Assembly: GCA_051453625.1 (NCBI GenBank)
Contig: JBOZIK010000001.1
Location: 35,122,661-35,166,885, forward strand
DNA: 44,225 bases
Origin: Welwitschia mirabilis
Lineage: Eukaryota
Direction of reading: 5' to 3'
Of this stretch, positions 736-44,225 are shown in pieces. The notes beneath the pieces are model-generated. The model did no database searches and was not told the DNA's origin. It saw only the letters and a program-made list of their open reading frames with translations. The position numbers and the translations under genes were made by a program. How positions within the stretch are numbered: the stretch's first letter is position 1; each line of letters starts with the position of its first letter.

Positions 736-789
736 CATGATTAAATACACATACGTCTTCAAGTATTTTCTATTTACATGTTAGTATCA

Positions 790-3919: not shown

Positions 3920-4393
3920 TAGATACCACTGAAACCCTAATGATGCATGGAAAGCATATGACATATTACATAAGTTTGATAAAGTTTAATACATTAACTA
4001 AAATTAGGTATCATCTTTCTAATTAGTTAAACAATGGTCGGGATGATGCTAGATTAAGAGAGTCCTATATTTATCATTCATGTTGGTCTAGTCAGCATCT
4101 TAGTTATTATACAAATGGTGTAATTGAAGTGGCCATCTAGACGATGGAGGAGATGACAAAAGACTTCAAGCTCTTCAATCAAGTGAATTTGACCTTGTAG
4201 AATATTATTTCCTTTTCAAAATGTAAAGTATTAAAATTAATTCAAAATGCCTCCAAATATGCTGATACTTGTAGATTTCTATGCTTTTCTCCTTAACTCT
4301 CAATAATTGTTCCTTTTTCCTTAAACCTATCTAAGTGTTCTATAAAACTATTCAAAATACCCTATTAAAAACATATAATTTGGCATTACAATA
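3920..4393 (-). repeat. 5' portion of a family-1 LTR, cut by an N gap
   Basis: Reverse complement begins TATTGTAATGCCAAATTATATG and is colinear with 13672-14150. Confidence 0.85.
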
Positions 4394-5670: not shown

Positions 5671-5674
5671 TGAT

Positions 5675-7141: not shown

Positions 7142-7144
7142 TAT

Positions 7145-7162
7145 TAGCACCATTATCGAGGA
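7145..7162 (+). promoter_or_regulatory. Primer-binding site, tRNA-Asp type (decayed)
   Basis: TAGCACCATTATCGAGGA versus the Athila PBS TGGCGCCGTTGCCGGGGA: six mismatches, all G>A or C>T; lies 3 nt after the LTR end. Confidence 0.85.
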
Positions 7163-7849
7163 AAGCTTCTTAGAGTTTGAGAATTCTTATTGCTTAAGTA
7201 AATACTTGGATTTTGGTTCAAGTATTCGTCTATAGTAGCATTGTATTTTTATAGTAGAAACAAAGGTTTTCCTTTTTGTGTTTTTCATTTTGCATTCCAA
7301 AATAAATATCCTATCATTTCTCTAGTTATTTAAATGATGTATGGTAATAACAATTTATGTGACTTAGGTTTTTAATTTTTCTTAAGAATTAATATTTTCT
7401 TATCATCCCCTCTGTTATTCAGATGACTCATTAGATATTTTTATTCTATGCTATTTTATTTTTTTTTTTTTTACATTTTTCATTTTAGGGTTTTCTGTGT
7501 GTTGTCATCTAGGTGTATCTTCTGGATGATCATAGAGATGATGAATTTAGAATAGAACTAAGCATGCTAGCACATGATATATTTTGGTAAAAAGATAAAG
7601 TATTAGAGAGAGTAGTTGTTGAACAAAAAAAACATCTCAGAAGGTTTGATCAACTATGATTTTAATGCAAGTATGTATAACTCAAGTACACAAAATATTT
7701 CATTTGTTGAATAATAATATTTTTTTGCATTTATTATTTTAGAATCTAATTTTTCAAAAAAAATTTAAAAAATAATTTAGAAGAAACTAATTCTATTACA
7801 CTATCAAATTCATCACAAAAATAGAAGTAGATTGCTTTCTTAAATTTCC

Positions 7850-9850
7850 TTATTATTATCAGAACTGCTACTACTACCCCATAATTCCTAATGCCAATGT
7901 CTCCCTTAAAGAACTTATTACAAATAAAAAACATCAAATCCANNNNNNNNNNNNNNNNNNNNNNNNNNNNNNNNNNNNNNNNNNNNNNNNNNNNNNNNNN
8001 NNNNNNNNNNNNNNNNNNNNNNNNNNNNNNNNNNNNNNNNNNCCTCTTTTGGACTACCTCCTGGGAATAATGTTGAGTTAAAAAATTTAAATTATTATCC
8101 TATTTTTACTAGAGAAAATGATAAAAATTGCCTCCAACATATAGCCAATATAAAAAATGGTAAAAAATGTATTAGTGATCATAAATACATGGTTATTTTT
8201 TCCATTATTTAAAATAAAAATATAAAAAATAATTAAAAACTATTCCACATAAAAATTTGATGAATCTCACTTTAGAAAATGCATGGAGATTATTGGAAGA
8301 ACTTGTAGAAGTAAGTTAAACTTAACCTAAACCAACATCTAAAGAAAATTGTACAGTGGGTGAAATCAAAAAAAACTTTAAAGAAGGTAAACAAGAAAAG
8401 GAGGGAGTAAAAATAGAAAAAGAACTAATAAATGTTATTAAGCATTTTACTACAATACTAAAGAAATACACTTAAATGATCTTAGATGCTAAGGTGGAAA
8501 CTAAAAAGAGTGTAGTTGTAGTTCCAACTTATAATTTATATGAAGATAACTACCATATAATAAAAGATTACCTTTTATTTCCTACCTATTAAAAAATATT
8601 TATGAAGAGGTGTACGCATTTAATTATAGGTCTTAAAAATTTAGAAATCAAAATGAAAACAAAAATCAAAACCAATTTTAACCTAGGATGAATGGACAAC
8701 CAAAATTTTAATCCTTTGTAAACAAATTTAAAAACTTTCAAGCAAATCATTCAAATTTTCAACCATTTAGAAATATATTTGAGAATGATCACTTTAAATA
8801 AATAACTCAAACTTCCAACCAAGCAACTTAAATTGTCAATCAAGCACATTAAACTCATAAAACTAAAATGATCCACTTAGAAAATCCATTAATGAGTTAA
8901 GAAAATCATAAGAGAAAACAAATTTAAACATTAATATCCTATAATAAACTATGCTTGCTAATCAAAGATCATAAGGATCACTTGCAATACAACCTTTACC
9001 CAATTCTGATAAAGTAAATAAAGATTGTAAGGTTAAGATAATAAGTAGAAATGATATGATACCTCCTACCTAAGAGGCTTCACATCCTAAAATGATTAAA
9101 ATAATGAAGAAGAAGAGGATATTGAAATCTTAGAAAACCGTACTTTCCATTTTCTTCTAAATGATAATAAGAAAAATTATTCTTAAAATAAAGGTAAGAA
9201 ATTTAATATCCCTTGATTTGATAGATTAAACACCAATCTTATCTTTGATAAGCATCTAAAAACCTTAATGCAAAATGTGAGCATAAATTTATCATTTTTA
9301 AAACTTTAATAAGAAAATAATAAATATTCTAAGTTATGGAAAGATCTAACTATGAGAAAACAAAAATGAACTATACCTAGTAAAGTCTTCCTAGTCCAAT
9401 CTATAACCAAATTAGTTTTACAAAAATGTTCAAAGTTTAAGGATCTAGGGTAGTAATATTTAGTATCATAGTAGAAGGAATAAGAAAATAAAGAAAGCCT
9501 TAATAGATATATGAGTGACTATTAACATTATGTCTTTACACATTTGTTAATTACTTGCTTTGAAAAGTAGAATTAAGCCTATAAGGATTGTCTTAGAATT
9601 AGTAGATACATCAGTAAAAAAAAAACTTTAGAAGTTATCAATATTTAGTAATTCAAATTTAAGAAGCATTTTATCCAATAGATGTAGTTGTTGTAATCGA
9701 ATTTAAGCATAATGGAGGTTATCCATTACTTCTAGGAAGAGCATTTTGTACAACATCCCATTGTATTATTGATACTAAAACTAAAATGATGAAATGTCAC
9801 TTATGAAATAAAAAGTTTACCATTAGAGTATTTGATGCTATTAAAAAGAA
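7850..9850 (+). pseudogene. gag-pol: Degenerate gag and aspartic protease of element A
   Basis: CCHC relic YNLYEDNYHIIKDY (8530-8571); protease KKALIDI*VTINIMSL (9491-9538; cf. ALLDLGASINLMP) and PLLLGRAFCTTSHCIID (~9723-9773; cf. PLILGRPFLATARALID). Confidence 0.85.
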
Positions 9851-10210
9851 TTTAGATGAAGAGTTAAATATTGAAGAAGAAATTAAGCCTAGTCTATTCT
9901 TACAGCATTGTCCACTTAAAGAAAGATAATTAATGCTTCATGAACATATCTTATTTGATGAGCACTTGAAGTAGAAAACTTGAAACTTATCAATGATGAT
10001 CAACTCAACTATGATAATTTAGGGACTGACTATTTTAATTAAGAAAATAGAAGAACTAAAACTGTAAACTATGTAGAAGTTCAAAATCTAAATAAAACTA
10101 GGATTTTTTATTTTTAGGAAGGTCGTCCAGACCAATCATCTATGAGACAGTATGGGATGATAGTCAATATTGATAAGGATTCAATAAAAAATAAAAATTT
10201 AAATTTAAAT

Positions 10211-11015
10211 CTAAAATATTTACCTAGTGGGTTAAAATATATCTTTTTGTGTGATGAGCAGAGTAAACCTTTGATAATAAATGAGAATATTTCCTCTCCA
10301 CAAGAGTCAATTTTAATCTAATTTTGAAATCTAAGGCTAATATGTTTGCTTAGTCCCATAAAGATTTAAGAACCATTTCTACCTCCATTGTTTAACATAA
10401 AATCTTCTTTGAGGATAATGCAAAACCTGTTAGGTAATCCCAACATAAACTAAACCTAACTCTTAAATAAGTTATAAAAGATAAAATCATTAAATTAATG
10501 GATGCTAGAATTATTTATGCCAAACTAATAGTGAGTGGATTATCCCTTTGATAATAGTGCATAAGAAAGATGGGAAGTGAAGAGTTTGTATTGATTTTAA
10601 AAAATTAAATGAAATAACTAAGAAAGAACATTGTCCTTTACCTTTCCTTAACTAAATACTTGTTAGAATTTAAGAACATAATTTTTGTTACATTCTTGAT
10701 GTAGGTTTGTATTTCTAGTGAGTCCCAAGCTAAAACTACTTTTAATTTACCATTTGGAACTTTTAAATACATGCTTTTTAAGCTTTGTAATACTTCTAGT
10801 ACTTTATAACATTGAATGATGGGTATCTTTTCTAATATGCTAGAGGATTTAATTAAAATTTTTATGGATGACTTGTCAATCTATGGTGAAAACTTTGAAC
10901 AAATATTAGAAAGGTTAGAGAAATTCCTTGATAGATGTACTAATAGTAGCCTACATTTGAGTTGGGAGAAGAGTTTCTTTTTAGTTAATAATGAAATTAT
11001 ATTAAGTCATCAGTG
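10211..11015 (+). pseudogene. pol: Degenerate reverse transcriptase (Athila-like)
   Basis: LKYLPSGLKYIFL; DGK*RVCIDFKKLNEITKKEHCPLPFLN*IL; MLFKLCNTSSTL; MMGIFSNMLEDLIKIFMDDLSIYG (FMDD at 10861-10872); LSWEKSFFLVNNEIILSH. Includes ORF 10816-11022. Confidence 0.95.
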
Positions 11016-11749
11016 TTGTTGATACTTTATTTGACCAAATCTAACTTCATATTTACTGTTTTCAATCATTTTTTAAAAAATGAGATATTTTTCATCCCCT
11101 TTCATTATTTTTAATTATTTCTCTTGTTTGTTAGCCTTTTGAAGTGCAGTTTTTACATAGAATATTTATTCTTTGTTCTCATCATTTTGGGATAGATAGA
11201 TCTAATTATTATTTTGAATTTTATGAGAAATATGAATTTCTATATTTTATGAGATGGAACTAGAGTTTTACCTTTGAAATTAGTTTTCTCTTACATCATT
11301 CATTAAAACCTAGTAATGCTTTTAGTCAAAAAGATTAGTGTGATAAGCTTTGCATTTCCACTAGATTAGCATTTTAATTTAGGAATTTGTAGTTTTGCAC
11401 CTCTGTGAGGTCCACCTACCCACTTGTTACTAATAAAATGCAATTTTTCTAGTTTTTCTAAGCACGTTAATGTGATCTAGGATGTATTAATTCACATGTG
11501 AGGGATATGATATATTTTTAAAAATATTAGTTATGATAGTCATTTTGAACTCATATGCAAGTTTAAATTTGATTTATTCCATATTATTTGCATGATATGC
11601 ATTATGAGTATTATTTAGTAGGCCATGCACTAGACAGTAGGCTTACCAAGTTAAGATAAAGACTTTGACTTTATTTCAGTTAGTTGGGCTTCTTGCATTG
11701 CTAATTATTTTGTTGGCTAAACCAATATATCCACCTCCTTTCTAGGCCA

Positions 11750-13535: not shown

Positions 13536-13671
13536 TATTCTAAGGATAACTTAAGGAGTTTCATTTAGCTTCCTTCTTCTTTTGATTATGTAATATATCT
13601 TTTTGAATTAATACAAAGTATATGTGATTTTGATCTTGAGTCATGAATAACTTTATGTTTCTAATGCTTAA
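13536..13671 (+). repeat. Middle piece of the family-2 3' LTR (insertion site of element B)
   Basis: First 45 nt match 38362-38406 at 44/45; the rest is colinear with ~33420-33516; ends CTTAA (left TSD copy). Confidence 0.85.
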
Positions 13672-14887
13672 TGTTGTAATGATAAATTTTATGTTTTTGA
13701 TAGGGTATTTTGAGTAGTTTTATAAAAAATTTACATAAGTTTAAGCATAAAATAATGATTATTAAGAGTTAAGAAGAAAATCAAAGAAATGTATAAATAC
13801 CAATACATTTGAAGGTATTTTGGATTAATTATGATACTTTACATTTTGAGGGGGAATTAGTAAGCTTCAAGACCAATTTAATTTGATAAATAAATTCAAG
13901 AAGGATATTGACCCCTCTACTATTTTGACAACATATCAAAATGATAACACTTGCATGCTGACTACAATGCTGACTAGATTAACATGAAGGCTAAATATAA
14001 AACTCTTTTAACATGGCATCATGTTGATCATCATCAAGATGATAAACAAGATAACCACCTAATTTTAGTTAATGTATCAAACTTCACCAAACTTTTGTAA
14101 TATCTCATGCACACTCTTACACATTCATTAGGATTTTATCATGTCTGTTAGATTTGATATTATTAGAATCTACTATTATCAATAAATACTACCTTAGTCC
14201 TTAGCTCTGATCATCTTCTTTATCACTAGAAATTCTTTTGATAAGATATTAAAGAATAAGAGATCTATCCTTTGTTATTGAATAGATATGTATTTTTTAG
14301 TGTTAGGCTATGTATCCTTCATTGAGGTGCTATTGCTTTATAACATGAATGTTTGATTTGACTTAATTAAAAATCTCTTTTTCTTTTTATATCTTTTGTT
14401 ATTTGCATCTCCCTTATGGTTTATGTTGCTTTTGATTTTGTAACATCTTTATCTATGATGTTGATTATGAGGATAAACTTTATTAAGATTGATGTTATTA
14501 GGTTATGTAAATTGCATTTAATTCTCTAAATTAACTTTGCATTATTTTCATATTCTATTCAATGTACCTGATAGATTAGGTTGGTTTTAGTGTGGTGATG
14601 GCCTTTATTGATTGATCTAGATCATCAAAGATTAATCTCCATAATAAGTTGATTTGGTAATTGGATAGAAGTTACATTTAGAGTAAAATTTACATCTCAT
14701 TTACATAATGTATTTATTTACATTGTTATTTCACATTATTATTATTCTTCTTTAAGATTACATAAGTATTTCATTTTAAAATTAATTATCTTTCTTCTTG
14801 CTTGTGATTTTGATAAAATTATGATATTTGATTACTTCTATATATGTATATAAAGACATAACATTTCTACAAATATGCCTTGCAACA
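13672..14887 (+). repeat. 5' LTR of element B
   Basis: Nearly gap-free colinearity with 21024-21925 plus 38565-38946 (roughly 75-80% identity by eye). Confidence 0.9.
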
Positions 14888-18250: not shown

Positions 18251-21023
18251 AATTGCTGAATATTTGATTTAGTTCTCATTTTTTTGAAAGAATGTAATAT
18301 CCTAGGATCATAGCCTTAGAAACAAATCTTTCTTTATGCTTTTTTCAATAAAATATTGAATAGATTTTAGGATTTAAATAAAATTTATTTTTATTTTGCT
18401 TTAGTATTTTATTTTTTCTCTTATGTTTTTATGTTTTTGTCTTTGGTTTTATTTTAATTAATAAATTGATCTCTAGATGGTTAGGTCCTTATCTTTTAGA
18501 GAAAGTACATTTTTAATGGCTCAGTTAAAATTTCCAATTTTAACACTAGGGTAATTTTAAAAAAAGGACATGGGTTAAAAATCCATGAATCATTAGACTT
18601 TAAACATAATAGAAGCAATTGTTTTAAAATTTATCCTGCCATTATTTGAATTCTTTCTTAGCTTATTCTTTTGGTGGACATCATGCTATCACTTAAACAT
18701 CTTTTAAACTTCACTTATGTTTACTTCATGATGTTATCATAACTAGTAATTTTTATTTAAGCTTTAAAGTAATAATATTAAATTCATTCAAGCTTAAAAC
18801 ATTCAAATGTCTATGAAATTCATTTAAAGAAATATTCTTTGGTTTTTTGCATTTTCTCTTAATGGTATAAGTCGCTACTTATTGGGGGTGCTTGTTCTTG
18901 TCTTTCATCTCATTTCTTCACCTTCATATTTGTGAGTGTGTGGTTATTTGGAATTTAATTTGAAGAAATATTTTTTTAAAAAAAAGAGAAAAAAGAAAAA
19001 GAAAAGGAAAAAGAAAGAATAATTATCATGATCTATTATTTTTATGCTAAATACATGGTCACCATGATGTTCTATTACACTCAGGTAATTTTTCTTAAGA
19101 GGAACCTTTAGTAGTATTGGTAGCTATGGAAACTTCACTAGGGAATTAGTTGGTTATGCTTCAAAGGTTTCTACTTCTCTGATTGTGGTTGCACTCCCTT
19201 CATCATGGATTAAAATAAAATACTTTGAGGCTATGAGATCAGTGATGTTTTTGGTGTCATCATAGGCATTTCTTATTTCCTAGAATCATTGTGCATACTA
19301 TATTCCCACATGATCATTTCACTTTTGAGGATTAAAATGTGAATTATATTGTTAGTAGGTTAGTTCATTTTTAATAGCTTTTAATCTTAGCATTCATTAT
19401 TTGAAACATTAGTTACTTAGCATCATCATAATCACTACCTAATTGAGTGGTACTTTATGGAGTTTTTACATTATATTATGAATTATTAATCAGGTGATTT
19501 TATGATTACTTCCAAGGGGTTTTGTAAAGTTTGAATTTAAGCTAGGTACATAATCTTCTTCATGTTCCTATGCTGTCCATTTTTGTTCTATTTTTGTTAA
19601 TTATTTTCTTTGCTATTTCAAAGTTATTTTCATACGTTTTCATCGTGAATGCTTAAGACTTGATCATTTCGTAGTTTTCTTATTGATTTTTATTTTCATT
19701 TGTAGCATTTCTTTTTAGAAGTTAATTTTAATAAATTTCTTTAGTTTATGATGCTAATTTTCCCATCTATGTTTTTTTGAATATTTTCAAGTTTCATTTT
19801 ATTTAATCTTTTCTTGAGTTTTGATGCATCTCATACTATTTTTCAATGATTACGAGTTCATGGCACATTTCATTTATCTTTCTTATCTTGATGTATTCAT
19901 CCCCCTTACCATACCTTGATTTATTATAATTCTTAGCCATTTTCCAACTTTTAAACTCTCTCATAGCTTTATAAAACCTACTTGATAATATTTGAGCTTA
20001 ACTGATTTTGTTGATAATTCCAAATTTTTGATCTTTTTAAAAAAACCTTATCATCCTTCCTTTCATCTAGGTGATAAGGCAAATAACATATAGTCATTCT
20101 AAGATTATTAAATATTTATCTTTCATCTTTTTTATAGTTTTTTTTTTTTAACCTTTCTTTCATACATAAAATACTACTCTTAGATCTATCTATTTTACTT
20201 ATTAGTACTTAACTTGCATATGGATCACTTTCCTTCTTACATTAATGTAATATGGAATGTATTAGTTCCCCTGAGGGGGTAGGATATATATTTTGAGATA
20301 TTTCAAGCAAAATTTAAATTTTTAGAGTTATTTTTAGATTTTCATAAGAATATATGTAATGTACTAATCTGATTTTGAATGCCTACTATTAAAGTGATAT
20401 GTATTATTAACATTGTTTAGTAAAATATGTACTTAATAGTAGAATACTTGTAGTTTGTATCTTTTGTAGTAATGATATAATAAATTCAAAAGATCATGGA
20501 TGAAGGAAATAATCTTATGATTGATTATTTTTAATATATTTTCCTTGTAGATTGTACTTATAGACTTAATATTTTATCTATAAATTTTCTTTTTTAGTTA
20601 TTACTTTTTTTATTTACATATGCACATCATTTATCTAAGTTATTATGGTGAAATATAATTATGATTTTTTTTTTAACATCAAACCTTTATATTTTTAATG
20701 TGCTAAATGTTTTAAGTAGGGGTATAATGCACTTGTAAGTATTTTGACCTTATTTTTTGATTAGCATGATTGTAAGTGATTAACTTTATTGATTGATTTT
20801 TTAAAAGCTTGTCATCTACATAATTAGCCAAATAATAGTTTAAACAATACACTATTAAGTTAAAACATTTTAGTTTATTTAATTTTGTGATTTACACATG
20901 TATACTGAGATTTATAAACTTGAACTATATATCCCTAGTTAGTATTTTAACTTAGTCAATTTGCCTCGCTATTATAATTGTCCATCAACTTTGTAAGGGA
21001 CTAACAAGGCTAAGTGGGGGATA

Positions 21024-21925
21024 TGTTTCAATGTCAAATTGTATGTTTTTTATGGTGTATTTTTAGTAGTTTTACAAGTAATTTAGATAGGCTTAAGCAT
21101 AAAATAATGATTATTGAGAGTTATGAAGAAAATCACATAAATGCATAAATACTAATACATTGAAAGCATTTTGGATTAATTCTAATATTCACATTTTGAG
21201 GAGGAACTAATGAGATTCAAGGATAATTTAATTTGATAAAGAGTTTTAAGAAGGCTTTCATCCTTTCTATCATTTAGATGACATGCCAAGACAATAACAC
21301 TTCCATGCTGACTAGGATGCTAACTGGATTGACATGAAGGATAACTATCTAACTCTTTTAATATGGCATTGTCTTGACTATCATTAAGATAACATAGAGA
21401 ATGACTACATAATTTTAGTTAATGTATAAAACACCACGAAACTTTTGCAATGTGTCATGCATCCTCTTATGTGCTCCTTAGGATTTTACCACATTTGTGA
21501 GATTTGGTATTATTAGAATTTATTCTTATCAATAAATACTGCCTTCGCCTTTGACTTTAATCATCTTCTTTGGAATTGGAAATTCTTGTGATAGGAGATT
21601 AAAGGACAAGATATCCATTCTTTATTATTGCAAAAAGAATTCTTTCTTGATGTTGGGCTATGTATTCTACATTGAGGTGCTACTGCTTTGTAATATTAAT
21701 GTTTGATTCAAGTTAATTAAAAATTTATTTTTCTTTTCATATCTTTTGTTATGTAAATCTTCATTATGATTTATGTTGCTTTTGATTTTGTGATAGCCTC
21801 ATTTATAATACAGATCATGAGGGCAATCTTTGTTAAGGTTGACATTGTTATTTTAGGTTCATTGCAGTTCATTTCCTAGATTAACTTTGCATTATTTTTA
21901 TATTCTGTTCAACATACTTGATAGC
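21024..21925 (+). repeat. 3' LTR of element B, first ~900 bp
   Basis: Follows the PPT; colinear with 13672-14575; last 58 nt are identical to 38507-38564. Confidence 0.9.
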
Positions 21926-23559: not shown

Positions 23560-23810
23560 AATAAAAGTTTATTTTATTCTATCTATAAAAGTCTATCTTT
23601 AGTGTTTTTCTATAAAAGTCTATTTTTAATTTTTTTCTATGAAATTTTATTTTTAGTATTCTATCTATAAAAATCTATCTTTAATGTTGTATTTACAAAA
23701 ATCTATTTTCAACATTTTATCTATGAAAATCTATCTCTAATCTTCTATCTACAAAACTCTATATTCCATCTATAAAGGTTCATTTCTAGTATTCTGTTTG
23801 TCAAAGTCTG
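23560..23810 (+). repeat. Degenerate minisatellite, ~28-bp unit, ~8 copies
   Basis: Units of the form TCTATAAAAATCTATCTTTAATGTTGTA recur at ~27-28 nt spacing. Confidence 0.85.
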
Positions 23811-25034
23811 TATACAAAACCCATTTTGTCAAAGTTTATCTTCATAACATTATCTCTAAAACTCCTTCTCAAAATAGTTTCATAGAAAATATACAAAAAC
23901 CAAGAAGAAAAGTCCAAATTAACCTCTTCCATAATTCTAGCATGGTCCATCTATTCCTGATTTTTCTAAGATCTAATACCAACAAGTCCTTAGATGTTCC
24001 ATCATTTTTTGAACCTTTTTACCGCTTCCTTTTACTATAGTTTCATCTCTAATACTTACAGAATGGTAAATTGAAGGATCACTTAGCCATTAGAAGGAAG
24101 CAAAGTTATTAGCAACTAATAAGCTTTCCCTAATCAAGAGTTAAGCCTAGATATCATCATAAAGTTATATAAGCCAAACGTTTTCTTTGATATGAAGCTT
24201 AAAATAGCTTCAATGTTATAAGTTCACTCTTTGTATATTAATAAAATCATCATTTTGTTTCTTCTAGGTACATATAATGCATTTTTATCTTTTTCTTAAG
24301 AATTTCTTAAATCAAATATATCATTTAATCTTTTGAAAATGTTTTGCTATTATTTTAAAGTTCTACATGTTAAAATTTCTTATGTTGTTTAGTAAATACT
24401 TTTTCTAATTTTTTAGATTCACTTTATAAGATCTACTAAACCATGCAACTTACTAAAATAGTCATATTCTATTTACTGATTAGTAGTTCTTTATTCATTA
24501 AATAATGTCATTTTATTTATAGCCTCTAAAATTGTCTATTTCAGTTTATCTATAAAACTATACCTATCTGTTTATGAAACTATTCTAGTCCATCTATAGA
24601 ACTATCCTAGTTAGTTGTTAAATAGTCTAGTTTATTTACTAAGTAATCTTCATTCATCAATTAAATTATTAAAATACTTTATTTACTACACCATTCTATA
24701 ATGGCTTTTAAGCTTATTTGATGCATCTATTAAATCATTTTATTTAGTTATTTCTATGAAATAGTGTCACTATGTCTACATAACTATATATTTTTATTAA
24801 TACTATTTTAATTAGTTTATAGAATTAATTTTTTACTATTTTCATTATTATAATATCTAGAATTTTTAGGTTACTCATGAATAAAGTCATAGGTCATTAT
24901 AGTATTGATTAAATACTCCCTTTTTATGAAACATCTTTTTATAATTTTCTACATTGTATGAAAAAATTGAAGTCTTTATTTTTCTTAGATTAGTATTTGA
25001 ATCTTCATTTCAAATTCTTTGATAATTTAAAAAT

Positions 25035-32645: not shown

Positions 32646-35600
32646 TATCAATATGTAAAAATTAACATTAATATTAATTGTTTTAAGCTAATTTATTATA
32701 AATTAAAACATTAATTTAATTATTTCAATCATATAATATGTCTTCTATTATTTTTTAAATAAACATAATTTTACACTTTTCTTCATAATAGTTACAAATC
32801 TTTATCAATGTTTTAGAACTCCATGGTAAAAGATGCACATAATTCTAAATGAAACAATGGTGGTAAGAGAGATGTAAGGTGGTGATACATAGTAGTAGCA
32901 TTGGAAGACATGTGATAGAGGTATGTAAATGTTGAATTAGAAACATATGATAATAGCATCAGTTAGTAGAGGAATATGACTCTAAATAATATACATTAGA
33001 TTCATTATGATGAAGATTTCACATAATGCTATATGACAATCTACATTAAATCCTACAAGACAACCTCAACCAAATGCTAAATGATAAGGATTTTACCTAG
33101 GTCTAGAGAATATAATATTATTTACCTAATGCTATAAGACAACCTTTACCAAATGCTATAGGATAGAATTTTATCTAACAAATGATAAATGATGAAGATT
33201 CTACCTAATGCTATAACCTAAACACTCTGGATCACTTCAACCTACTCTTACCTATAGAAGGACATTGAGTTGTTTTTTTTAAGCATTCGTTTTTTAGAAA
33301 ATGATAAAATTCCTAATAAAATTCCTAGAGTATCAAGTTAACATGAACTTCTAAGCTTTTTTATATGGACACTGAGCTTGTTACAAGGATATCTTGGGGA
33401 GTCTCATATAGCTTTCTTCTTTATTTGGCTATGTAATATATATTTTTTTAATTAATATAAAGTAGATATGATTTTGATTTTAAGTCATAAATAAATTCAT
33501 AATTTTAATGCTTAGTGATTTTTCTCTATCAAGGGTTTTAATCAATTTAGTAAATCTATTAGTTAGTTAGTTTAAGTATTTTTAATTTGATGGATCTTAA
33601 GTACAATGAGTCCTTTATTTGCATGATTATTTTAAGGATATGAAGAATGAATTAACTTTCAAATTCATCTATCCTCATAGGATAAATTAAATTATGTCAA
33701 CATGGATAGAGGTATTATTACTTAATAGTTTAACTTGTATTTTAGAAAGTTTCAAGAATTATCAGAGTAAGGAAGTGCTAGTAAATAAATTAAATGAATC
33801 CTTAGAGCTTGCTTGTATTTCTAATTTTATAATCAAAGTTGTAATAAATTCTTAACTCCCTTCTTTTTCCCTTTCTTTTGTAACTTATACGATAAGTATA
33901 ATTTCTATTTAGCCAATCTCAATTATCCATTTTAAAGAATGATACTAAGTCTTAACTTAGATTTAAATATAGATGATATAATAAAATGAATAATAAATTT
34001 TATTTTCATTATTAGGGATAATAACATAGATGATCATAAAGAGTATAAACTTTACTTTGTTATAAGATTTTTTATTTTTTATTTTTAAGTGGTGGGTAAT
34101 GCTCTACTCTAGTGATACTTGAACTAGTCCTCTTTCTTTTTCTTTTATCTATTATTTAATTTTTTCCCTCTAGTTATTGGTACTAGTCCATCTAGTTATA
34201 CCCAAAATAGTTCATATTTATGTTTTTATTTTATTTTTATTTTTATTTTTTGCTCTAACTTGCTTTGGTTATAGGTTTAACAGTGTTTTTACACATTGTA
34301 ACAAATGAATGAAAAAAAATAAAAATTTAACTTAATTTATGTTCTTTTTTTTATTTGTTGTGTTTTTATAATTAGGTTTTAATTTTCTATTTTATTCATT
34401 TCTCTCAAATTACTATTATAAATATTAAAACACTCAAAAAGGTTTTTATGATTTAATTTTCATTAAGACTGGTTTTATGTGCATAGCCTTTTTAATTTTC
34501 TATTATATTTTTCCATAATCATGTAAATTTAATTGATTTATGAGAGTTTTACAAATCTCTATGTTTTCTTAAAACTAAAATTCACAACTAAATCAAAACC
34601 ATCTCCTTTCTAGACTGGCATTGCTAGTTCTTTTTTCTTATAACTCTGTTAGATTTGGTAGAAAACCTTATCTGACTCCTACAAATCCTTTTTAATATCA
34701 AGCCTTCTTTGGATCCTTAAAAAGTCATGAAAATGTAATCTTTTAGTAAACTTTACTTACCATTTTATAAAACTTGATGTGGATTGGAAACATGATCCTT
34801 TTAGGACACTATATAAAGTACATTTTGAACCCCAGTTTGTCTATGAAAATAATGGAAATCCCTATGACTAAAATAATATCATTCAAACTATGACAACTTT
34901 AGGGGATTATCTTTAATGTAATTATAATGAATCTTATCCTTCATCCTTTCTTCCATACTTATTTGATCAATGACCTCCACATATATATCAACTTCCTTAT
35001 CTTAAATTTGAAAAGTATTATTTTCAATAAGAATAGTTTGATCTTATTCTTTCCACTATCTCTTATAAACCTTATCACTTATTATTTAGCACCTATCCTT
35101 TATCTTCTTACATGTAATACTAATCTTCATCCACATCATTTGAGAAGTCAATAAGAAAATTCATTGTATACTCAAGCATAAATTAATAATAACCATAAAA
35201 GAACTTTGAAATAACACTTCTATTTCCTAAATAACCTTGAGTAAATTTTCTAAACCCGTATCCAGCTTATTCAACAAATAACCCAAAGTAGTTCTTAAAT
35301 CATTGTTATTCTCAAAAAATAAAAGGAATGCTTCCTTGTAGTTCCTAAATATAAAACTTTTGAATACCTTGAGAGGATTAAGAAGAGTTAAACCTATGAT
35401 ACTAAACCATATCCTTTAAGAATGAAGGGAAAAAGTAATGAGGAAATCCATAAGAATATTGAATTTAAGAATGCACTAAAAAATTATTAATTATTTATGA
35501 TAAGGTGATACTTTGGAGAAGCATTAAACATTAAGAAACCATTTGAGAAAGGATATATCTTAGAGAGTTACACTATAAAGGATGAGTTATTAAGAGACAT

Positions 35601-38406
35601 TAACAAATAGAGCATTGAATTACCACCATTGTCACTTAAGAAATCACATGAGAAGGAATTATCTAGTAATGTTAATTAGGAAAAATACGTTAATAAAGAG
35701 CTTATATGTGATCCATTCTTTAAGAAATCCTCATCTTCTTAACAACTCCATAGACCACTCATTATATCTTTACATTTATTTACTAAGAAATACCCAAGGT
35801 ATAATGAAAGAGAAAAACCTTCTTTAAAATTGGAACCAACTTTCAAAGATCTTATACATGACTCCTCTAATGAATAGCGACCTTTTCAAGTGATTTCCCA
35901 ATCATATTTTTCTTCTTCTCAAAATAATGTCTTGCAAGAGTTGTTGAATAAATATAAATAGCTAAGGGATGAAATATTTTTATTTTAAATATATAAACCT
36001 TTCTAATTGCATTAATTTTCTTCTTAATTTCATAAACTCTTGTATAAAAATATATATGAATTTTATCTTGGTTCAAAATGCTGCACAAAGTTTTAAATCA
36101 TTCAACCTTTCCTTTAACACTCTTAACCTTTATACATGTACCATATTAGAGAATTTTTAGTTCCATTTTATTCTTTTAGATTAAATTTTTCTTTTAGAAT
36201 AGATTTTTCTCTTAGAATATATATAGTTTGAGAAAAAAATAAAATCATTAAAAACATTTATGCTTAATGGTATATCTTACTCAAAACATCTCAAGTACTA
36301 CCACCTATACAATCATTGCCTTAAATCCTTTCACTTAGCAAATCCTAATTTTCATCCTCTTAAGCCTCTCCATTGATCTCTCTTATTTTCCAATAACTTC
36401 ACTAAGCCAATACATCATTTACTATATCCATTCATCTATGAATTCATAAGACTTATAGATTTAAATTAACGGATTTTATCAAAAAATTAGTAATAAGTTA
36501 TCTCATTATCACTTAAGTAACTATTATAATTAAGTTTACTTATGGGATTTTAAGGAAGAGTTACACTTACTTTGAATCTAACTATTAAAGGCAAAATTGT
36601 TTTACATCTTTAATTTCAATAAAAAATGGCTGAAAAAGGTGGAATATACCTTCATATTTTATTCCTTATGTTTAAAGCTTTTGATAGAAACAAGATGTTT
36701 CTTAATTAGTCTAATGAGCCATGACCTCTCTAAATGTGCATAACAAATGAATATAAGAAGATGAACAAAATAAGAATAATATCTCTTCTCCAAATGCACA
36801 TCTCACTAATCACTTAGTTGGGTTTTGTTAACTTTATTATGGCTATGGACACTCATTAGAAATTTAGCTCTAATGATCTAATTATGACATAATCAACTAC
36901 ATTGAGTGATAAATACTAAACATACTTAATACTATTGGGATGCTCAATGTGAATTATTTATGTTAAAATAAAAGGAAAATAAAGGAAATAAAAGGGTAAA
37001 AATTAAAGGCCTTTTGATATTTATTGTTTTTTTAACTTTCATACTTGAGATTCTCTACAATTTCATATACCATGCTTAGTTGATATTAATATTAACTTAA
37101 AAAAATACAAAAATGTAATAAAAGCCATTAACTTAAGTAAGTTTGTTCATTTATTTATTGATTTTATGATTAAGTTCTTTGATATATTTTTCATTCTTCA
37201 TCTCCATAATCCACTCTTATTTCATAAGAAATAAATTATGAGGCATAAATTGCTTTTTAGGATGCATATTTTTACTTAGAATTTTTCAAATAAGTTAATT
37301 GTATTTTTTGCATTAGTATTTTCGTTTCATAGCTTAGTTGCATTACTTTGCATTATTTTAATAAAAGGACTTACAAAATCTTTGTAAGAATTATGTTCTC
37401 AAAATCTATAATTCTTTCTATTAATAAACTATAAAGACAAAGTTGAGTTTTGATTAAAGGGTATAGCACCTAGTTTTTACATCTTTATTCATAGAATTTA
37501 TTAAATTCAATGTTTTAACTTTAAAAATTGGTCATAAATTTTTTTAAAAAGATATATCATTTATCATATTTAAGTGTTCTTTCCTAGATAAATTTTTCAT
37601 ATTAATCATTTTTTTATTAATGTTTTACTAAGATTATTAAAAAAGTTAAGTTATTAGGTGTGGTAACATATAAAAATTGACATTTATATCAAATGATTTT
37701 GGTTTATGTATTATAAATAAAGACATTAATTTAATTGTTTAAATAATACAAAATAAAACTTAAATTAACACTTTTATCCCTAATAATTGCAAATCTTTAG
37801 CCATGTTTTAGAAAACATGATAGAGAATGGACACACATTTGCATAAAATAATAGTGGCAATTAAGACATAATGTAATGAAATGTAGCAATAGCATTAGAA
37901 GACATGTAGAAGAGGCATGTGGAGTTGGTATTAGATACACATGGAAATAGCATTAGTTGGTAGGGGAATATAGCTCCAAAGTTCACATTTTAGACTCATT
38001 ATAATGAATATTTCATCTAATGCTATATGATGATTCCCAAGAAATACTATAAGAAAATATCCATCAAATGCTAAATGATAAAGATTATACCTAATGCTAA
38101 AGGATAGAATCTTTTTTATGCAATACTATAAGATAATATCCATCAAATGCTATGAGATAGGATATTATCTAAAAAATAATAAATGACCAAGATTCTATCT
38201 AACTTTATAAGCCAAAAGATTCCAATTCCCTCAATCCTACCCTCACTTATAAAAGTACCTTAATTCCTCATTTATAAACATCTTTTATTTTGAAAAGCAA
38301 TAGGATTCTTAGAGTACCAAGTCAACATCACCTTCGAAGCTTTTTTTATGGGTAGTAAGTTTATTCTAAGGATAGCTTAAGGAGTTTCATTTAGCTTCCT
38401 TCTTCT
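32646..38406 (+). mobile_element. Second Athila-like, non-autonomous LTR element (element C, family 2)
   Basis: 5' LTR 32646-33995; PBS-like TATTTTCATTATTAGGGAT (34001-34019); degenerate ORF ~34700-36100; PPT-like AAGTTAAGTTATTAGGTG ending 37660; 3' LTR from 37661, colinear with 32646 onward. Confidence 0.75.
33020..33220 (+). repeat. Internal ~25-bp tandem repeats in the family-2 LTR (second copy at 38015-38200)
   Basis: Recurring AATGCTA(T/A)A.GA.AA..T..ACCT units in both LTRs. Confidence 0.75.
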
Positions 38407-38506
38407 NNNNNNNNNNNNNNNNNNNNNNNNNNNNNNNNNNNNNNNNNNNNNNNNNNNNNNNNNNNNNNNNNNNNNNNNNNNNNNNNNNNNNNNNNNNNNN
38501 NNNNNN

Positions 38507-38854
38507 TTCATTTCCTAGATTAACTTTGCATTATTTTTATATTCTGTTCAACATACTTGATAGCTTAGATTAGTCTTCATCTAGTGATGGCTTTTCTTAA
38601 TTAATCTAGATTATACAAGACCGATCTATATAATAGGTTGTTTTAGTAATTAAATAGAAGTTGTAATTAGAGTAGAGCTTGTATCTCATTTGCGTAGTAT
38701 GTTTATTTGCATTGTTATTTTGCGTTCTTATTATTCTACTTTAAGGTTACACAAGTATTTCATTTTGAAATTAATTCTCTTTCTTCTTGTCTATGACTTC
38801 AATGGGATTATGAAATTTGAGTTGTTCCCATATATATTAGTATGTTATTTTGTG

Positions 38855-38892
<38 letters not shown>

Positions 38893-38946
38893 TGATTTTC
38901 AAGATTTGTTTAAAGACATAAAATTTAACAAATATGCACCATAATA
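38507..38946 (+). repeat. Terminal part of the element B 3' LTR
   Basis: Overlaps 21868-21925 exactly; colinear with 14520-14887; ends GCACCATAATA followed by TSD CTTAG. Confidence 0.9.
38857..38887. repeat. (AT)n microsatellite, ~15 units
   Basis: Direct inspection; lies inside the element B 3' LTR. Confidence 0.95.
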
Positions 38947-39470
38947 CTTAGTAAATCTACTCTATCAAGTTCTTTTATTAACTAAGTGAATTTATTAGTT
39001 AGTTGATTTAAGTATTTTTTTAATTTGATGAATCTTAAGTACATCAAGTCCTTACTTTGATTAATATTAAGTGCACTAAGTCCCTACCTTTCATGCTTAT
39101 TTTAAGGCTGCAAAGGATTAAAAACTTTTGAATTCATCAATCCCTCATATGGTGAATGAGATTATGTCATCATAACCAAAGTTATCATTACTTAATAGTT
39201 TAAAGTATGTTTCAAGAAGATGTAAAACCTCATCAAAATGAATAAGTGCTAGTGGATGAATAGGGTGAACCCTTGACGCTTACTTGCTTCACTACTCCAA
39301 TCAAATTTTTCATAAATATTCAACTCTCTTCTTTTTTCTTTTCTTTTGTGGCTTATAACATAAGAAATATTATGTAGTTTATATTTATTTAACTATAATT
39401 ATCCTTGTGAAAGAATACTACTGAGTGTTAACTAAATTTAAATTTGGTTCATTTACTAAAATAAAAAATA
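38947..39470 (+). repeat. Terminal part of the element C 3' LTR
   Basis: Colinear with ~33510-33995. Confidence 0.85.
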
Positions 39471-39689
39471 ATGGTGTTGATGTTATTTGCTGAAATTTCT
39501 TTAGTTTATGCAATTTTCTTCATAAGGTAGTAATAAACCTACTTATGTTAGGAAAAAGTTAATATTTACATGAAATATAATAAAAAGAAAAGAATACATT
39601 ATTTTATAATAGAATAATAAATTTAATGTTCCATCTTATGGAAAATTAATCAACTATAGTTGCTTGGAATGTCAATTCTTACATGTAAA

Positions 39690-41085
39690 CATGAAGCTTA
39701 ACTACACAAATTACACCATATGAAAGATGAGGATGAAGGATTTTCTAATAGATCAAGTCCTTAAAGATTATCAAAATGAAAGTATTTTCACAAAGAAAGA
39801 TGAAGATTCATGCTTCACTAGACTTATCATATTTATAAATATGAGGAATGAAGTTTATCCTATTGTTTACAAGAGCAAGTATCCTAAAGAACATTGGAAC
39901 ATAATAGACATCTTTTAACTTATGATTGCATAGTAAAAATAGTCATTGATTTGTGAACTCTTCACAATCAAACTTAAAGATCATAAAGAAATAATCAAGA
40001 AATAATCAAAAATTGGGAACATATTGCTAAGATTGATGAAGAAATAATCAATTCCATCTTACTTAAGGTATTTCAATTAAACTTTAAGACATTTCTTAAA
40101 GTATTAAAGCATGATAATGAAACCTATTCATTTGAATAAGTAATGAAAAAAGTCCATCAAGTTAAAATAGAAATAAAAATAAGTGAAGACAAACTAAGCA
40201 TAATTCTTACTACATCTAATAAATGCATGAAGCAAAAATACACAAGATTTAAATTTTGTAAGTTCTATAGTAAGATGATCTACCACTTCTAGTGTCATTC
40301 ATTGAAGAACAGAAAAAATTCTTAGAGGAAGAAGAAGTAAAATAAGAATAAAAAAGAGAATAAGGACAAAAATTTTGAAACCACAATCATAAGTAATGAT
40401 GTGGGTCATTAAGAATAATTTTTAGCAATCTCTGTAAGTGATAAAGAAAAACGGTTCATAGACTCAAGAGTAGTAAGTTATATAACTAATAGTAAATAAT
40501 GGTTTATGAAACTTGGTTCAATCTTGGATAGCATCATTAAAAACAAAATCATTAGTGACAAAATGAATCTAAGAATAAATTAGGTAGAAATTATAAATCT
40601 ATCATTCTTCATCTTAATTTAAACCCTTTACATTTCCAAAATCAAGATGAAATTAATATTAGTTACTTTAAGACAGATTTGAAGCTAAATTTAGTAAGAA
40701 GAAGAATAAGATATGTTGTATCATAAAAGTAAGTTATAATGATAGAATATTTCTTTTACAAATGACATAAACCAATCAAAAATCCTTTTTAGTTATCAAA
40801 AAATATGAAATAATGCTTTAGCACTAGAGGGTAAGTCATGCAAGCCTTAGACTTATTAGAAAATTACACCAAGTTAATAAAGAAATTCTAAAACATAACA
40901 CTAGAATACTATTTTGTGAATTCTATAAGATGGTTAAAAAACACTTTAAGTCATTTCAAAATAAAAAAATTAAGATAAAAATAAGCGTGAAGCTTAAATT
41001 AATCCATAGTAAGTTGTGTGAAACATTACCTATTTCATTTTTAAAACACTAAAAATACTTTATCACTTTTGTCAATTACTGATAA
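39690..41085 (+). pseudogene. gag-pol: Degenerate Ty1/copia gag-protease-integrase, truncated in the integrase core
   Basis: TNYTI*KMRMKDFLIDQ (includes ORF 39727-39918); protease RFIDSRVVSYITNSK*WF (from 40452; cf. WxxDSGASxHMT); L*H*R..HAS pre-integrase motif (~40815); LKLIHSKLCETLPISFLKH*KYFITFVNY (from 40993; cf. LELIHSDLCGP...YFITFIDD). Confidence 0.9.
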
Positions 41086-41934
41086 CATGTAAGGATTGAA
41101 ATTTACATCAAGTAATTAAAGCCTTATTAGAATGATTAATTGATTATAATGATGTTTTTATGTGTTTATTATGCTTAAGAAGAGGAAGAGATAGTTTTAC
41201 TAATCACCTATCTTAGAAGTGGTGACAACTCTAGTTCTAGGAGTGAAAGCACTGGTTATTATAATTAGAATGGTAACATATTTTTATCATCTCTCTTGAT
41301 GCAAGCAATCCATTCTAGTTACTTCAATAAGTAGAAGATAAAAAAGGAATATTTTCTATGAATAATCCCTTACTTTGGCCTCATAACTAAAGGATAACCT
41401 TGTACAGTTTAAAAATTGTAAACAATAGCTTAATTAGTCCCTAAATTCTAATTCTAGCATATAAATACCCTACCTCAATTCATTTGAAGAATATCATATC
41501 ATTTTTATATTATAAATATATTAAAGTTTTATTTATGAGTTCTTTCTAAGCTTTCCATAGGAATGTGTTAGCTACTAAGCTATCATGATACTTCTTGGAT
41601 TATCATAATTACATTCATAGATTATATACATTTACTTTTATAATAATAAAGTGTTTTACATTATTGATGCATTACTTTAATATCAAGTTTTGATGGATCT
41701 CTTACTATTATTATTAGGATTGCCAAAGTATGATTTTACTTTAACATTTTTTTGGCGATTCTCTTTTTCATTCTATCTTAAATAACCTAAATGCTTATTT
41801 GATGTATTTTAGAACACTCCTCCTTTCCATGCTTATTTTATTCATGCTGTGAAAACTAGGTGCTTAAGTATATCACCCTCATGTCTATGATAAATGAAAT
41901 TATACCATTATGCTTCATCTATAACCACATGGGT

Positions 41935-42210
41935 TGTAATAACTCAAACTTCTACTATTGAAAATACTTTAAAACTTGCTTTAATGCTCTAATACCAGAA
42001 TGAAAAGGCTAAATGTTCTACAGTTGAAAATCTTCATACACTTGATGCTCTGATACCAAAATGAAATGTTCAATAATTTCTAATGTTGGAAAAAAAAATT
42101 TCAATTCAAATCTCCCTTAAATTTATTAGCTCTGATACCAAATGATACATCCAGTATTAATAGTTGAAGACTTCGATAGCTCTTTATACTTACACCAAAA
42201 TGTAATATTT
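41935..42210 (-). repeat. Tandem array of LTR-end / tRNA-iMet PBS junction units
   Basis: Plus-strand GCTCTAATACCA (41986-41997), GCTCTGATACCA (42047-42058 and 42129-42140) and a disrupted copy (42179-42197), each followed by 2-3 nt and then TG. Confidence 0.85.
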
Positions 42211-43198
42211 AATGAAATAATCATCTTCTATAAAAAGATCTTAAGATAATGGGTGGACTCAATGATGAAGTTTAATTTAAAATACTATTTAGGATATTTC
42301 ATTTTATTAGCTAAACATTTTTATGGATACACTTAATTTAATATTAATGTTTAGTATGTGTAAGTTTACCTANNNNNNNNNNNNNNNNNNNNNNNNNNNN
42401 NNNNNNNNNNNNNNNNNNNNNNNNNNNNNNNNNNNNNNNNNNNNNNNNNNNNNNNNNNNNNNNNNNNNNNNNNNNNNNNNNNNNNNNNNNNNNNNNNNNN
42501 NNNNNNNNNNNNNNNNNNNNNNNNNNNNNNNNNNNNNNNNNNNNNNNNNNNNNNNNNNNNNNNNNNNNNNNNNNNNNNNNNNNNNNNNNNNNNNNNNNNN
42601 NNNNNNNNNNNNNNNNNNNNNNNNNNNNNNNNNNNNNNNNNNNNNNNNNNNNNNNNNNNNNNNNNNNNNNNNNNNNNNNNNNNNNNNNNNNNNNNNNNNN
42701 NNNNNNNNNNNNNNNNNNNNNNNNNNNNNNNNNNNNNNNNNNNNNNNNNNNNNNNNNNNNNNNNNNNNNNNNNNNNNNNNNNNNNNNNNNNNNNNNNNNN
42801 NNNNNNNNNNNNNNNNNNNNNNNNNNNNNNNNNNNNNNNNNNNNNNNNNNNNNNNNNNNNNNNNNNNNNNNNNNNNNNNNNNNNNNNNNNNNNNNNNNNN
42901 NNNNNNNNNNNNNNNNNNNNNNNNNNNNNNNNNNNNNNNNNNNNNNNNNNNNNNNNNNNNNNNNNNNNNNNNNNNNNNNNNNNNNNNNNNNNNNNNNNNN
43001 NNNNNNNNNNNNNNNNNNNNNNNNNNNNNNNNNNNNNNNNNNNNNNNNNNNNNNNNNNNNNNNNNNNNNNNNNNNNNNNNNNNNNNNNNNNNNNNNNNNN
43101 NNNNNNNNNNNNNNNNNNNNNNNNNNNNNNNNNNNNNNNNNNNNNNNNNNNNNNNNNNNNNNNNNNNNNNNNNNNNNNNNNNNNNNNNNNNNNNNNNN

Positions 43199-44225
43199 AT
43201 ATGAAAATTTTAATTTCATTACTACTTGGAGTTATCCACAAAAGAATTCTTAATAATAACCATTATGCCTCCACTAAGAATGGATCTTATGACCTGTGTA
43301 AGGAGAACTAACTTACTTAATCAATGCGCCATGGAGGATGAACTTGAAATAAATTAAAAACGAAATATTATCTATCATTGGAGATGCAAGTAAGGTGAGG
43401 TTTTACTTTACCCAAACAGCACTGAAATTCGATTGAATGAATGGTAATGGTAATCACATGCATGAATGGAAGGCGAGCAATGCAGATCATAGTGTACTGA
43501 AACTACCACAGAGATGAATCACCTAAAGAAATGCACTATCAGAGAATTTCAAAAAAAAAACAATGCGTCTGCAGGAAGAATTGGCTAGAGAAGAGGATGA
43601 GTGAAATGTTTTCTTTTCTGAAGATTTGGCTCATTTTGTTGAAGCTAAAGGGAGTTACAAGGTGCAGTTTGTCAAAAGATTACAAAATGAAATGCTTGTA
43701 CAAGAAAGAAATGGAAAATGCTCCAAAAGAATACACGTTTCAAGGGTTTTGATGGGTAAAATAAAACTAATTTAATACATTTTAGGACTGGCGTTTCTTA
43801 GGGCTTGAAGAGGCATTTTTCAGAAACAATGTTTCAAACAAGAGCGTTTTGAAATGGCATACATCCATACCTAACATTTTACAACCTGTCCATTTCTCCC
43901 ATTTCTCCTATGAGGTTCAACATAGATCTGAAATGGAGTGTTGGAGTTTCGTAATGGCAAGATGGAGCTATGAAACGCTTAGCAAAAAAACCTATTTCTT
44001 ATGTTTATCAGCTATCTTAGATTTTAGTTTAAGTAGTAACGCTTTTCATTTAACAAATAAGTTAATAGAGTAGTGGTAGGAGGCAAGTACGAAAAAAGAA
44101 AGGGTAGGGGTTTGAATCTCATTATGAATGAAATGGCTCTTAAGTTTCAATAATTATCATTCTCTCTTCCCAATAAATCTAACTTAAGATTTTAATTTGA
44201 ATTTAAAGGAATATACTAAATAATC
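43199..44225. other. CpG-retaining low-copy-like non-coding DNA (possible gene flank, UTR or intron)
   Basis: About 12 CpG in 1 kb versus about 2 per kb counted in 15600-21000; higher GC; no similarity seen to repeats in this window. Confidence 0.5.

Follow-up and report, generated by a model that had tools for sequence, protein, structure and literature searches.

Diverged tandem units carrying the tRNA-iMet primer-binding site in Welwitschia mirabilis: a probable relic of a high-copy, retroelement-derived repeat

TRIM elements have terminal direct repeats of about 100-250 bp around a short internal domain that carries a primer-binding site (PBS) and a polypurine tract (PPT). Tandemly arrayed TRIMs (TA-TRIMs) are common (PMC4717578). 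LTR elements primed by tRNA-iMet are abundant in plant genomes (PMC6317226, PMC7215508), and the 12-nt word TGGTATCAGAGC is the plant iMet PBS, which is that of Cassandra (PMC7215508). Cassandra builds long tandem arrays, and LTR-LTR recombination, template switching in reverse transcription and unequal exchange have been discussed as their causes (PMC7215508). In the rice element OsajLTRA10, a 25-bp internal sequence with the iMet PBS is duplicated (PMC4717578). Tandem repeats are also frequent in the non-coding parts of large plant LTR elements (PMC6317226), and satellites often originate from tandem repeats inside LTR retrotransposons (PMC7004042). In Gypsy, two different tRNA-binding sites are present, one 5' and one 3' (PMC1635307). 

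The array described here lies in a contig of Welwitschia mirabilis (JBOZIK010000001.1). The window, by which we mean the whole stretch of DNA analysed, is 44,225 nucleotides long, has 25% GC and contains seven N gaps. On its minus strand, from 42206 to 41935, four decayed PBS-junction units can be read directly, one behind the other in head-to-tail order (Table 1). The PBS word is exact in units 2 and 3, carries a single C>T in unit 4 (TGGTATTAGAGC), and is present in unit 1 as a disrupted, PBS-like word. Every word sits 2-3 bases after a CA, where the PBS of an LTR retrotransposon is expected 0-5 nt behind the CA end of the LTR, and the three intact ones match the PBS at 12, 12 and 11 of 12 positions. 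The array is closed by another ATTACA. An initial, sequence-only reading had described this region as an array of iMet PBS words, each behind an LTR-end-like CA, and that description is confirmed. Measured from word start to word start, the units are 57, 82, 61 and 63 bp long (Table 1), where that reading had given 58-81 bp.

Table 1. Features of the array and its surroundings, with the summed depth of contigs from three public DNA runs (X1, X5, X6)
Feature	Position	Strand	Detail	X1	X5	X6
ATTACA, a CA terminus resembling an LTR end; TTT and unit 1's disrupted word come next	42201..42206	-	read directly			
Unit 1, 57 bp, opening with the disrupted 19-nt word (42197-42179)	42141..42197	-	alignment score 46 to unit 3			
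Unit 2, 82 bp, TGGTATCAGAGC (42140-42129) after TATCA-TT; longer spacer with a T9 run	42059..42140	-	reading and alignment			
Unit 3, 61 bp, TGGTATCAGAGC (42058-42047) after TTTCA-TTT	41998..42058	-	reported as holding the deepest bin in all three DNA runs			
Unit 4, 63 bp, TGGTATTAGAGC (41997-41986) after TTTCA-TTC; ends in ATTACA (41940-41935)	41935..41997	-	alignment score 50 to unit 3			
Spacer core common to the units, plus strand TTCTAC.GTTGAAAAT	42011..42034	+	three copies, the others at 41945-41968 and 42064-42087; 71-100% identical to the reference			
TTTCA-TTT-PBS block, possibly present again in inverted, decayed form	42296..42318	+	23 nt, 74% complementary to 42045-42067			
Purine run GGAAAGGAGGAG followed by TG, candidate polypurine tract and LTR start	41817..41828 (with TG to 41815)	-	read directly			
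Scaffold gap of 826 N, where any 5' LTR would mostly lie	42373..43198	.	read directly			
Depth bin in unit 4	41948..41983			10011	2749	1166
Depth bin in unit 3	42020..42055		reported as the stretch maximum for each run	7631	27007	3295
Depth bin 42056-42091	42056..42091			5205	11192	1589
Depth bin over the unit 4/unit 3 border				2234	2682	451
Depth over units 2 and 1	42092..42199			451-871	196-524	50-111
Depth over the flanks	41444..41911 and 42200..42372			hundreds to about 3200	hundreds to about 9100	20 to about 3700

The array shares features with several of the described systems, and differs from each. TA-TRIMs and Cassandra arrays are also head-to-tail parts of retroelements, with TGGTATCAGAGC in every repeat and a variable copy number (PMC4717578, PMC7215508). 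However, each repeat there spans an entire LTR and its internal domain, over hundreds of bp, whereas the unit here consists of no more than the CA end, the PBS and a brief leader. The search pattern used for Cassandra has 200-1000 bp between repeats (PMC7215508), against units of 57-82 bp here. The Cassandra 5S-rDNA boxes A (RGTTAAGYRHGY) and C (RRRATRGGTRACY), which are expected 5-200 bp upstream of the PBS (PMC7215508), are absent from both strands of the whole window. OsajLTRA10 provides a case in which the PBS word and its upstream bases are present twice in an LTR retrotransposon, but there the two 25-bp copies are found at a deletion breakpoint, and the available part of the source reports no high-copy tandem family (PMC4717578). 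Tandem repeats in UTRs and the satellites derived from them likewise form arrays in non-coding parts of LTR elements. Unlike the monomer here, which is the PBS junction, their monomers are not described as containing a PBS in the accessible portions of the two papers (PMC6317226, PMC7004042). Gypsy/Ty3 two-PBS systems also have more than one tRNA-binding site per retroelement RNA, but these are different sites at the 5' and 3' RNA ends that pair with different parts of the tRNA, and not one site copied in tandem (PMC1635307). In open-access text we found no description of tandem arrays with a PBS junction as the monomer, and none of the four unit strings occurs in the text of open-access papers. 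The array is a variant of known retroelement tandem structures, and not a new kind of system.

The clustering of the words is well above chance. Three words with at most one mismatch lie inside 155 bp on one strand, while 0.054 are expected per window, counting both strands, at the window base composition, and this contrast is what confirms the array. Shuffled windows (n=300) contain on average 0.057 such words and never more than 1. Outside the array the situation is different from what the sequence-only reading had supposed, namely that the other PBSs of the window are heavily decayed: at up to three mismatches there are 20 matches against 20.25 expected from shuffles, which gives no indication that the window contains a further PBS. 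Tandem Repeats Finder calls no array of ~60 bp and reports only an 18-bp fragment in two copies (42011-42045), from which it follows that the units are strongly diverged. The number of units is given as assembled, the array being 160 bp from the 826-N scaffold gap. Among the contigs listed from public runs, none covers the whole stretch, and the sole zero-difference contig that touches the array (X1, 41672-41975) ends within unit 4; the unit number rests on the assembly.

The four units are homologous to one another and constitute a diverged tandem repeat. MAFFT aligns all four, and a repeat search returns three families in register, one consisting of the word alone, one of the word with the bases following it, and one of the spacer core. 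When unit 3 is used as the query of local alignments, both unit 4 and unit 1 score above the best of 200 shuffled targets (50 and 46 against 44). The likeness of unit 2 to unit 3 is weak outside the word, from which most of its score derives (35, p = 0.085). Candidates for extra units flanking the array, at 41900-41850 and 42266-42211, are at noise level (p = 0.43). The spacer core that the sequence-only reading had noticed is real, both alignment and repeat search giving TTCAAC/TTCAAT .. GTAGAA. That reading had also proposed a serial capture of junctions, or repeated insertions beside a PBS. Because the units are homologous to each other, an origin of the spacers from the ends of different LTR families is ruled out, and repeated insertion with it.

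Conservation along the unit is uneven. When the three units whose words are intact are aligned, with a rotation that keeps the word away from the edges, the word itself is the best-conserved stretch of 12 columns: 34 of its 36 pairwise comparisons match, the mean elsewhere being 0.32, and column shuffles of these three units (20,000 trials) give p = 1e-4 for the conservation of the word window. In the alignment of all four units, the best window moves to TTACATTTTGGT, which takes in the CA end and the first bases of the word (p = 5e-5). The CA-TTT-PBS block is where conservation is focused, although part of the contrast is ascertainment, because the region was chosen for its PBS words. Words and spacers have thus not diverged to the same degree, as they would have in an ordinary decayed tandem duplication.

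The copy number of the units was assessed in public DNA runs. Those matching part of 41300-42372 comprise 13 rows from four studies and two organism codes, and none of the rows is recorded as RNA. The contigs of three DNA runs from two organisms were aligned to the stretch at a likeness of at least 85, giving 2303 contigs for X1, 3122 for X5 and 943 for X6. Logan contigs are short and the depth sums all look-alikes, so that copy numbers are rough, and LTR context and array length are unreadable. Zero-difference contigs have a depth of 4.0-8.1. Over 41948-42091 the depth is 2234-10011 in X1, 2682-27007 in X5 and 451-3295 in X6, which places units 3 and 4 at hundreds to thousands of times the single-copy depth, as an order of magnitude only. 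The depth of unit 2 is lower than that of units 3 and 4, at about 50-530. Many contigs run on from one unit into another. Their loose ends after 42060-42063 (19 records in X1, 31 + 30 in X5, and 24 in X6) enter the TTCTACA..AAAAT core of another unit. Some joints jump back by 56 and 123 bases, and those that carry inserted letters amount to roughly one or two periods. The deep pile-up, together with the run-on into further units, indicates that the unit belongs to a high-copy, tandemly organised family. The array is therefore not unique in the genome, a possibility that had been entertained at the outset: the unit is high-copy in three DNA runs from two organisms and the unit number varies among copies, an answer obtained from the contigs of public runs.

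The contigs also inform on which differences are peculiar to this copy. Within 41948-42091, among 40 of 94 rows, the majority differs from the copy here at 41983 and 42014, and part of the contigs differ at 41991 and 42010. Units 3 and 4 here have about 3-4 differences from the majority letters in 144 bp, among the positions listed. Position 41991 reads G in 10% (X1), 23% (X5) and 65% (X6) of the depth, and the C>T word of unit 4 is the majority form in X1 and X5. At 42185, 42187, 42188 and 42195 most contigs have other letters, and with those letters the word of unit 1 is still no PBS. The presence in the majority of a mutated word in unit 4 and of a non-PBS word in unit 1 means that not all words were maintained, and this partial loss fits amplification at the DNA level as well as it fits retrotransposition. 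Units 3 and 4 are diverged from each other yet each is high-copy, and so the divergence of the units predates the spread of the family. The possession of several diverged PBS-bearing units is an inherited trait of the family, and not decay or a product of this locus. In the RNA run X14, two reads fall on the stretch, both less than 90% alike, and these are too few to speak to expression.

The copy at this locus is inert, being without a detectable LTR pair, coding remnant or RNA structure signal. A search for the LTR partner of 42141-42372 gave no above-null match in 40500-41830, 38507-40500 or 43199-44225; the 826 bp beside the array are gap. At E<=1e-3, nothing else in the window matches 40000-41935. 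Repeat pairs of 65-80% identity abound in the remaining sequence. One match in the window, at 34692-34772 (66% over 83 nt), was set aside, since nothing PBS-like is found there on reading. The possible inverted copy of the PBS block (Table 1) may be chance in DNA so AT-rich. The purine run at 41828-41815 is only a lead to a polypurine tract, as no LTR is found after it. A miniature TRIM-like array, as had been suggested, is not supported: no LTR pair or matching terminal repeat was found, units of 57-82 bp are too short for an LTR plus internal domain, and they are homologous along their whole length.

The coding content is equally meagre. In Pfam, none of the 54 ORFs of at least 55 aa in the window matches gag, protease or integrase; the sole match is a sub-threshold RVT_1 fragment at 10816-11019, which is 31 kb from the array and on the other strand. 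Retroelement domains are also missing from the 28 minus-strand ORFs of at least 30 aa at 36000-41935, where the only Pfam match, Tom6, is taken as spurious. The copy may be a non-autonomous or truncated one. ARAGORN finds no tRNA genes in the window, Rfam gives no match in 40800-42372 at E<=1, and the RNA of the array folds no better than its shuffles (z = -0.06).

Close repeats of the PBS word are found in other sequence collections as well. Among metagenome contigs, 75 stretches, grouping into 40 sequence clusters, contain a pair of exact words at a distance of 35-65 nt. The periods in these loci are 21-77 bp, a single locus holds as many as eight words at no more than one mismatch, and in most of the loci the bases just 5' of the word, often ending in CA, are repeated along with it. 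A same-strand downstream ORF of at least 90 aa is available for 41 of the 75 loci. Retroelement ORFs are downstream in 11 of those 41 (7 of the 40 clusters), with Ty3-type gag (Retrotrans_gag/Ty3_capsid), copia-type gag (Retrotran_gag_2), Pol_BBD with zf-CCHC, and gag-type aspartyl protease. Two clusters are not retroelements. In one (L003/L032/L034), the word is part of a 21-bp repeat that in L003 adjoins a mannose-6-phosphate isomerase ORF, and in the other (L011/L044/L059), a repeat with the word has a response-regulator ORF downstream in L044. Another example (L017/L074) is satellite-like, with 30-bp units over about 900 bp and many decayed words. In L012, two copies of one element are 1.6 kb apart, one with one word and the other with two. 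As controls, 596 Gb of prokaryote genomes yielded 1 match, in a MAG contig, which reads as a CA-TT-PBS duplication, and viral contigs yielded no paired-word matches. The array with its flanks has no relative among the 75 metagenome loci, the matches being limited to two of 19 nt around the word, and the 23-nt unit string is absent from viral contigs and prokaryote genomes.

The metagenome pairs also allow a comparison of the two sides of the word. Ungapped identity between paired words is higher upstream than downstream (0.70 vs 0.58, Wilcoxon p = 0.03), which mostly reflects where the borders of the duplications are placed. In 16 of 38 cluster representatives both words have a CA within 6 nt, a count that is descriptive only. 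Retention of PBS versus spacer in the extra metagenome units (0.58 vs 0.70, 38 clusters) was discarded as meaningless, because unrelated sequence passes the 60% gapped-identity filter.

The best explanation, to which we assign a probability of roughly 0.6, is that the array is the inactive relic of a retroelement-derived tandem repeat of a U5-end/PBS/leader module. Of the interpretations in the sequence-only reading, the one that stands is the duplication of U5-PBS junctions; serial capture, a TRIM-like array and a decoy do not. The ~60-bp unit would comprise a U5 end in CA, a gap of 2-3 nt, the 12-nt iMet PBS and a leader of about 35-45 nt. Duplication of the module may have taken place in an ancestral element. 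Reverse transcription could have produced it, through template switching or misaligned strand transfer from one PBS copy to another, and so could replication slippage or unequal exchange. During retrotransposition of the family, each unit would have provided a usable CA end and PBS. In retroviral biology, the tRNA's 3' end is copied during plus-strand strong-stop synthesis. Words that served in priming could thus be kept both by selection and by such recopying, and words not used for priming would have drifted. Drift of unused words would account for the word of unit 1 and for the C>T form of unit 4 that is in the majority in X1 and X5. The ancestral element may have had a working multi-PBS leader.

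The main rival holds that the array is a minisatellite or young satellite of retroelement origin, whose amplification and reshuffling took place at the DNA level alone, with words that are intact owing to youth or homogenisation and were never multiply used. We consider this unlikely, though a serious contender. The unit bins are deeper than both flanks, and deepest in the second organism, where the deepest unit bin of X5 (27007) compares with 1069-2404 in the right flank. Further units are present in other copies and their number varies, most X1 and X5 contigs share both the mutated unit 4 word and a unit 1 that is not a PBS, and the locus has no LTR or coding context. The 30-bp units of the satellite-like metagenome example provide a parallel, and satellite birth from tandem repeats of LTR retrotransposons is reported to be frequent (PMC7004042). 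However, homogenisation would keep whole units alike, whereas units 3 and 4 are diverged although high-copy, and the block kept in them is the one that a retroelement needs. The flanks 41444-41911 and 42200-42372 are, moreover, repeated hundreds-fold in X1 and X5, as would be the case for a dispersed element that bears the array.

A stronger form of the retroelement reading is that the multi-PBS array is an adaptation of the family rather than debris, giving redundancy of primer sites as a general mode of LTR retrotransposons. This we hold to be doubtful. Each unit would combine an integrase end (CA) with an iMet primer site, and reverse transcription might start at any of them. The words used would be rewritten from the tRNA in each cycle, which would leave perfect words beside drifting spacers. 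Units upstream of the word used would join U5 and hence both LTRs, and word-to-word strand transfer would expand or contract the array. The module could also seed a PBS-bearing satellite. On this view, primer-site redundancy of a kind so far undescribed would lie behind the 40 unrelated metagenome clusters, of which 7 have gag, protease or copia-type Pol ORFs directly downstream.

A tandem duplication in situ that arose within a single dead element, is confined to this locus and then decayed neutrally is very improbable. It agrees with the mutual alignment of the units and with their divergence, as judged from the fragment that Tandem Repeats Finder sees. However, units 3 and 4 each have very many relatives of at least 85% likeness in three runs, with few majority differences among those listed, and neutral decay would not give one 12-column block with 34 of 36 matches against 0.32 elsewhere.

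It is also highly unlikely that the array is a functional multi-site small-RNA target or decoy, binding 3' fragments of tRNA-iMet or miRNAs of the miR1511/miR845 type in order to soak them up or to trigger secondary siRNAs. Small RNAs directed to the PBS (miR1511, miR845 and 3' tRNA fragments) do recognise the iMet PBS word (PMC4470002, PMC8215267). The miR1511 Northern probe contains the word (PMC4470002), and according to a review LTRs are the targets of miR845 and miR1511, which have a link to tRNA-iMet (PMC8215267). The array itself offers several sites on one strand inside 155 bp. However, the three intact sites match the miR1511 probe at 12, 13 and 12 of 21 positions (PMC4470002), and so they are poor targets. 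The complementarity ends at the 12-nt word, which makes a decoy role unlikely. Plant small-RNA targeting normally requires near-full pairing. The lack of an RNA structure signal and of an Rfam match, and the embedding of the copy in decayed, 25% GC repeat DNA, also speak against such a role. Finally, a minisatellite with no link to retroelements, in which the 12-mer is present by coincidence, has precedents in the isomerase and response-regulator clusters of the metagenomes (L003/L032/L034 and L011/L044/L059), but is scarcely credible in view of a chance of ~1e-6 for the word in a given 60-bp unit at the window composition, the CA-N2-3 before every word, which is LTR-end geometry, and the abundance of iMet-primed LTR elements in plants (PMC6317226, PMC7215508).

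What the array means at this locus is modest, since it is a dead copy in decayed repeat DNA beside an assembly gap. The wider interest lies in the tandem PBS modules present in many unrelated elements, and in the growth of one such unit to a high-copy family. If PBS modules are regularly tandem, annotation tools that expect one PBS after the LTR would misplace LTR ends and misdate elements. The arrays would then also be a concrete intermediate in the origin of satellites from retroelement parts, and would provide a natural system of alternative priming sites, in which redundancy may serve as protection against loss or targeting of the PBS.

Comparison of the window with itself shows a mosaic of old repeat copies, mutually 65-80% identical (examples are given in the table), and the array region is absent from all of the pairs in this identity range found within the window. 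The flanks of a 100-N gap at 6630-6729 (6480-6629 and 6730-6878) are 98% identical over 150 bp, and they look like an unmerged contig overlap, which would make the duplication an assembly artefact. The sole coding relic detected in the window is an ORF whose match to RVT_1 scores 24.3 bits, below the cut-off of 29.6. Elsewhere, a 28-bp tandem repeat lies about 200 bp from a PBS-like word on the minus strand.

Features of the window outside the array
Feature	Position	Strand	Details
68-aa ORF, sub-threshold RVT_1 reverse-transcriptase match	10816-11019	+	E 3e-05
Tandem repeat, 28-bp period, 6.8 copies	23575-23776		score 180
PBS-like word, two mismatches	23970-23981	minus	sole other two-mismatch word in window
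Repeat pair	13671-14574 and 21023-21924		one of several old copies, 65-80% identity range
Repeat pair	1757-3639 and 15543-13718		one of several old copies, 65-80% identity range

Immediately to the left of the array, a segment of 46 bp (41870-41915) reaches depths of 3181, 9066, and 3677 in the three DNA runs, in which contig ends are numerous at both of its borders (41869 and 41915). It could represent an independent short repeat of high copy number or else additional decayed units.

Repeats of the PBS word (the 12-mer complementary to the 3' end of plant initiator tRNA-Met) in other collections are of several kinds. In three of the metagenome loci with two exact PBS words (L003, L032, and L034), the word stands at the start of a perfect 21-bp tandem repeat of five copies, downstream of which L003 has ORFs for mannose-6-phosphate isomerase and a glycosyltransferase-like protein; here the word looks like a chance occurrence outside retroelements. 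Two further loci, L017 and L074, are satellite-like, with 30-bp units over about 900 bp, and the PBS word, intact or decayed, opens every unit.

The sole double-PBS match in 596 Gb of prokaryote genomes (L076, positions 1-130 of a contig of a Bacteroidaceae MAG) reads as a CA-TT-PBS-leader module in duplicate, and is probably eukaryotic DNA binned into that MAG. In the metagenome locus L012, the internal region of one element is present twice on a single contig (487-1002 and 2001-2599, 83% identical), the first copy carrying one PBS word and the second carrying two, 73 bp apart. L012 is a direct case of copies differing in unit number.
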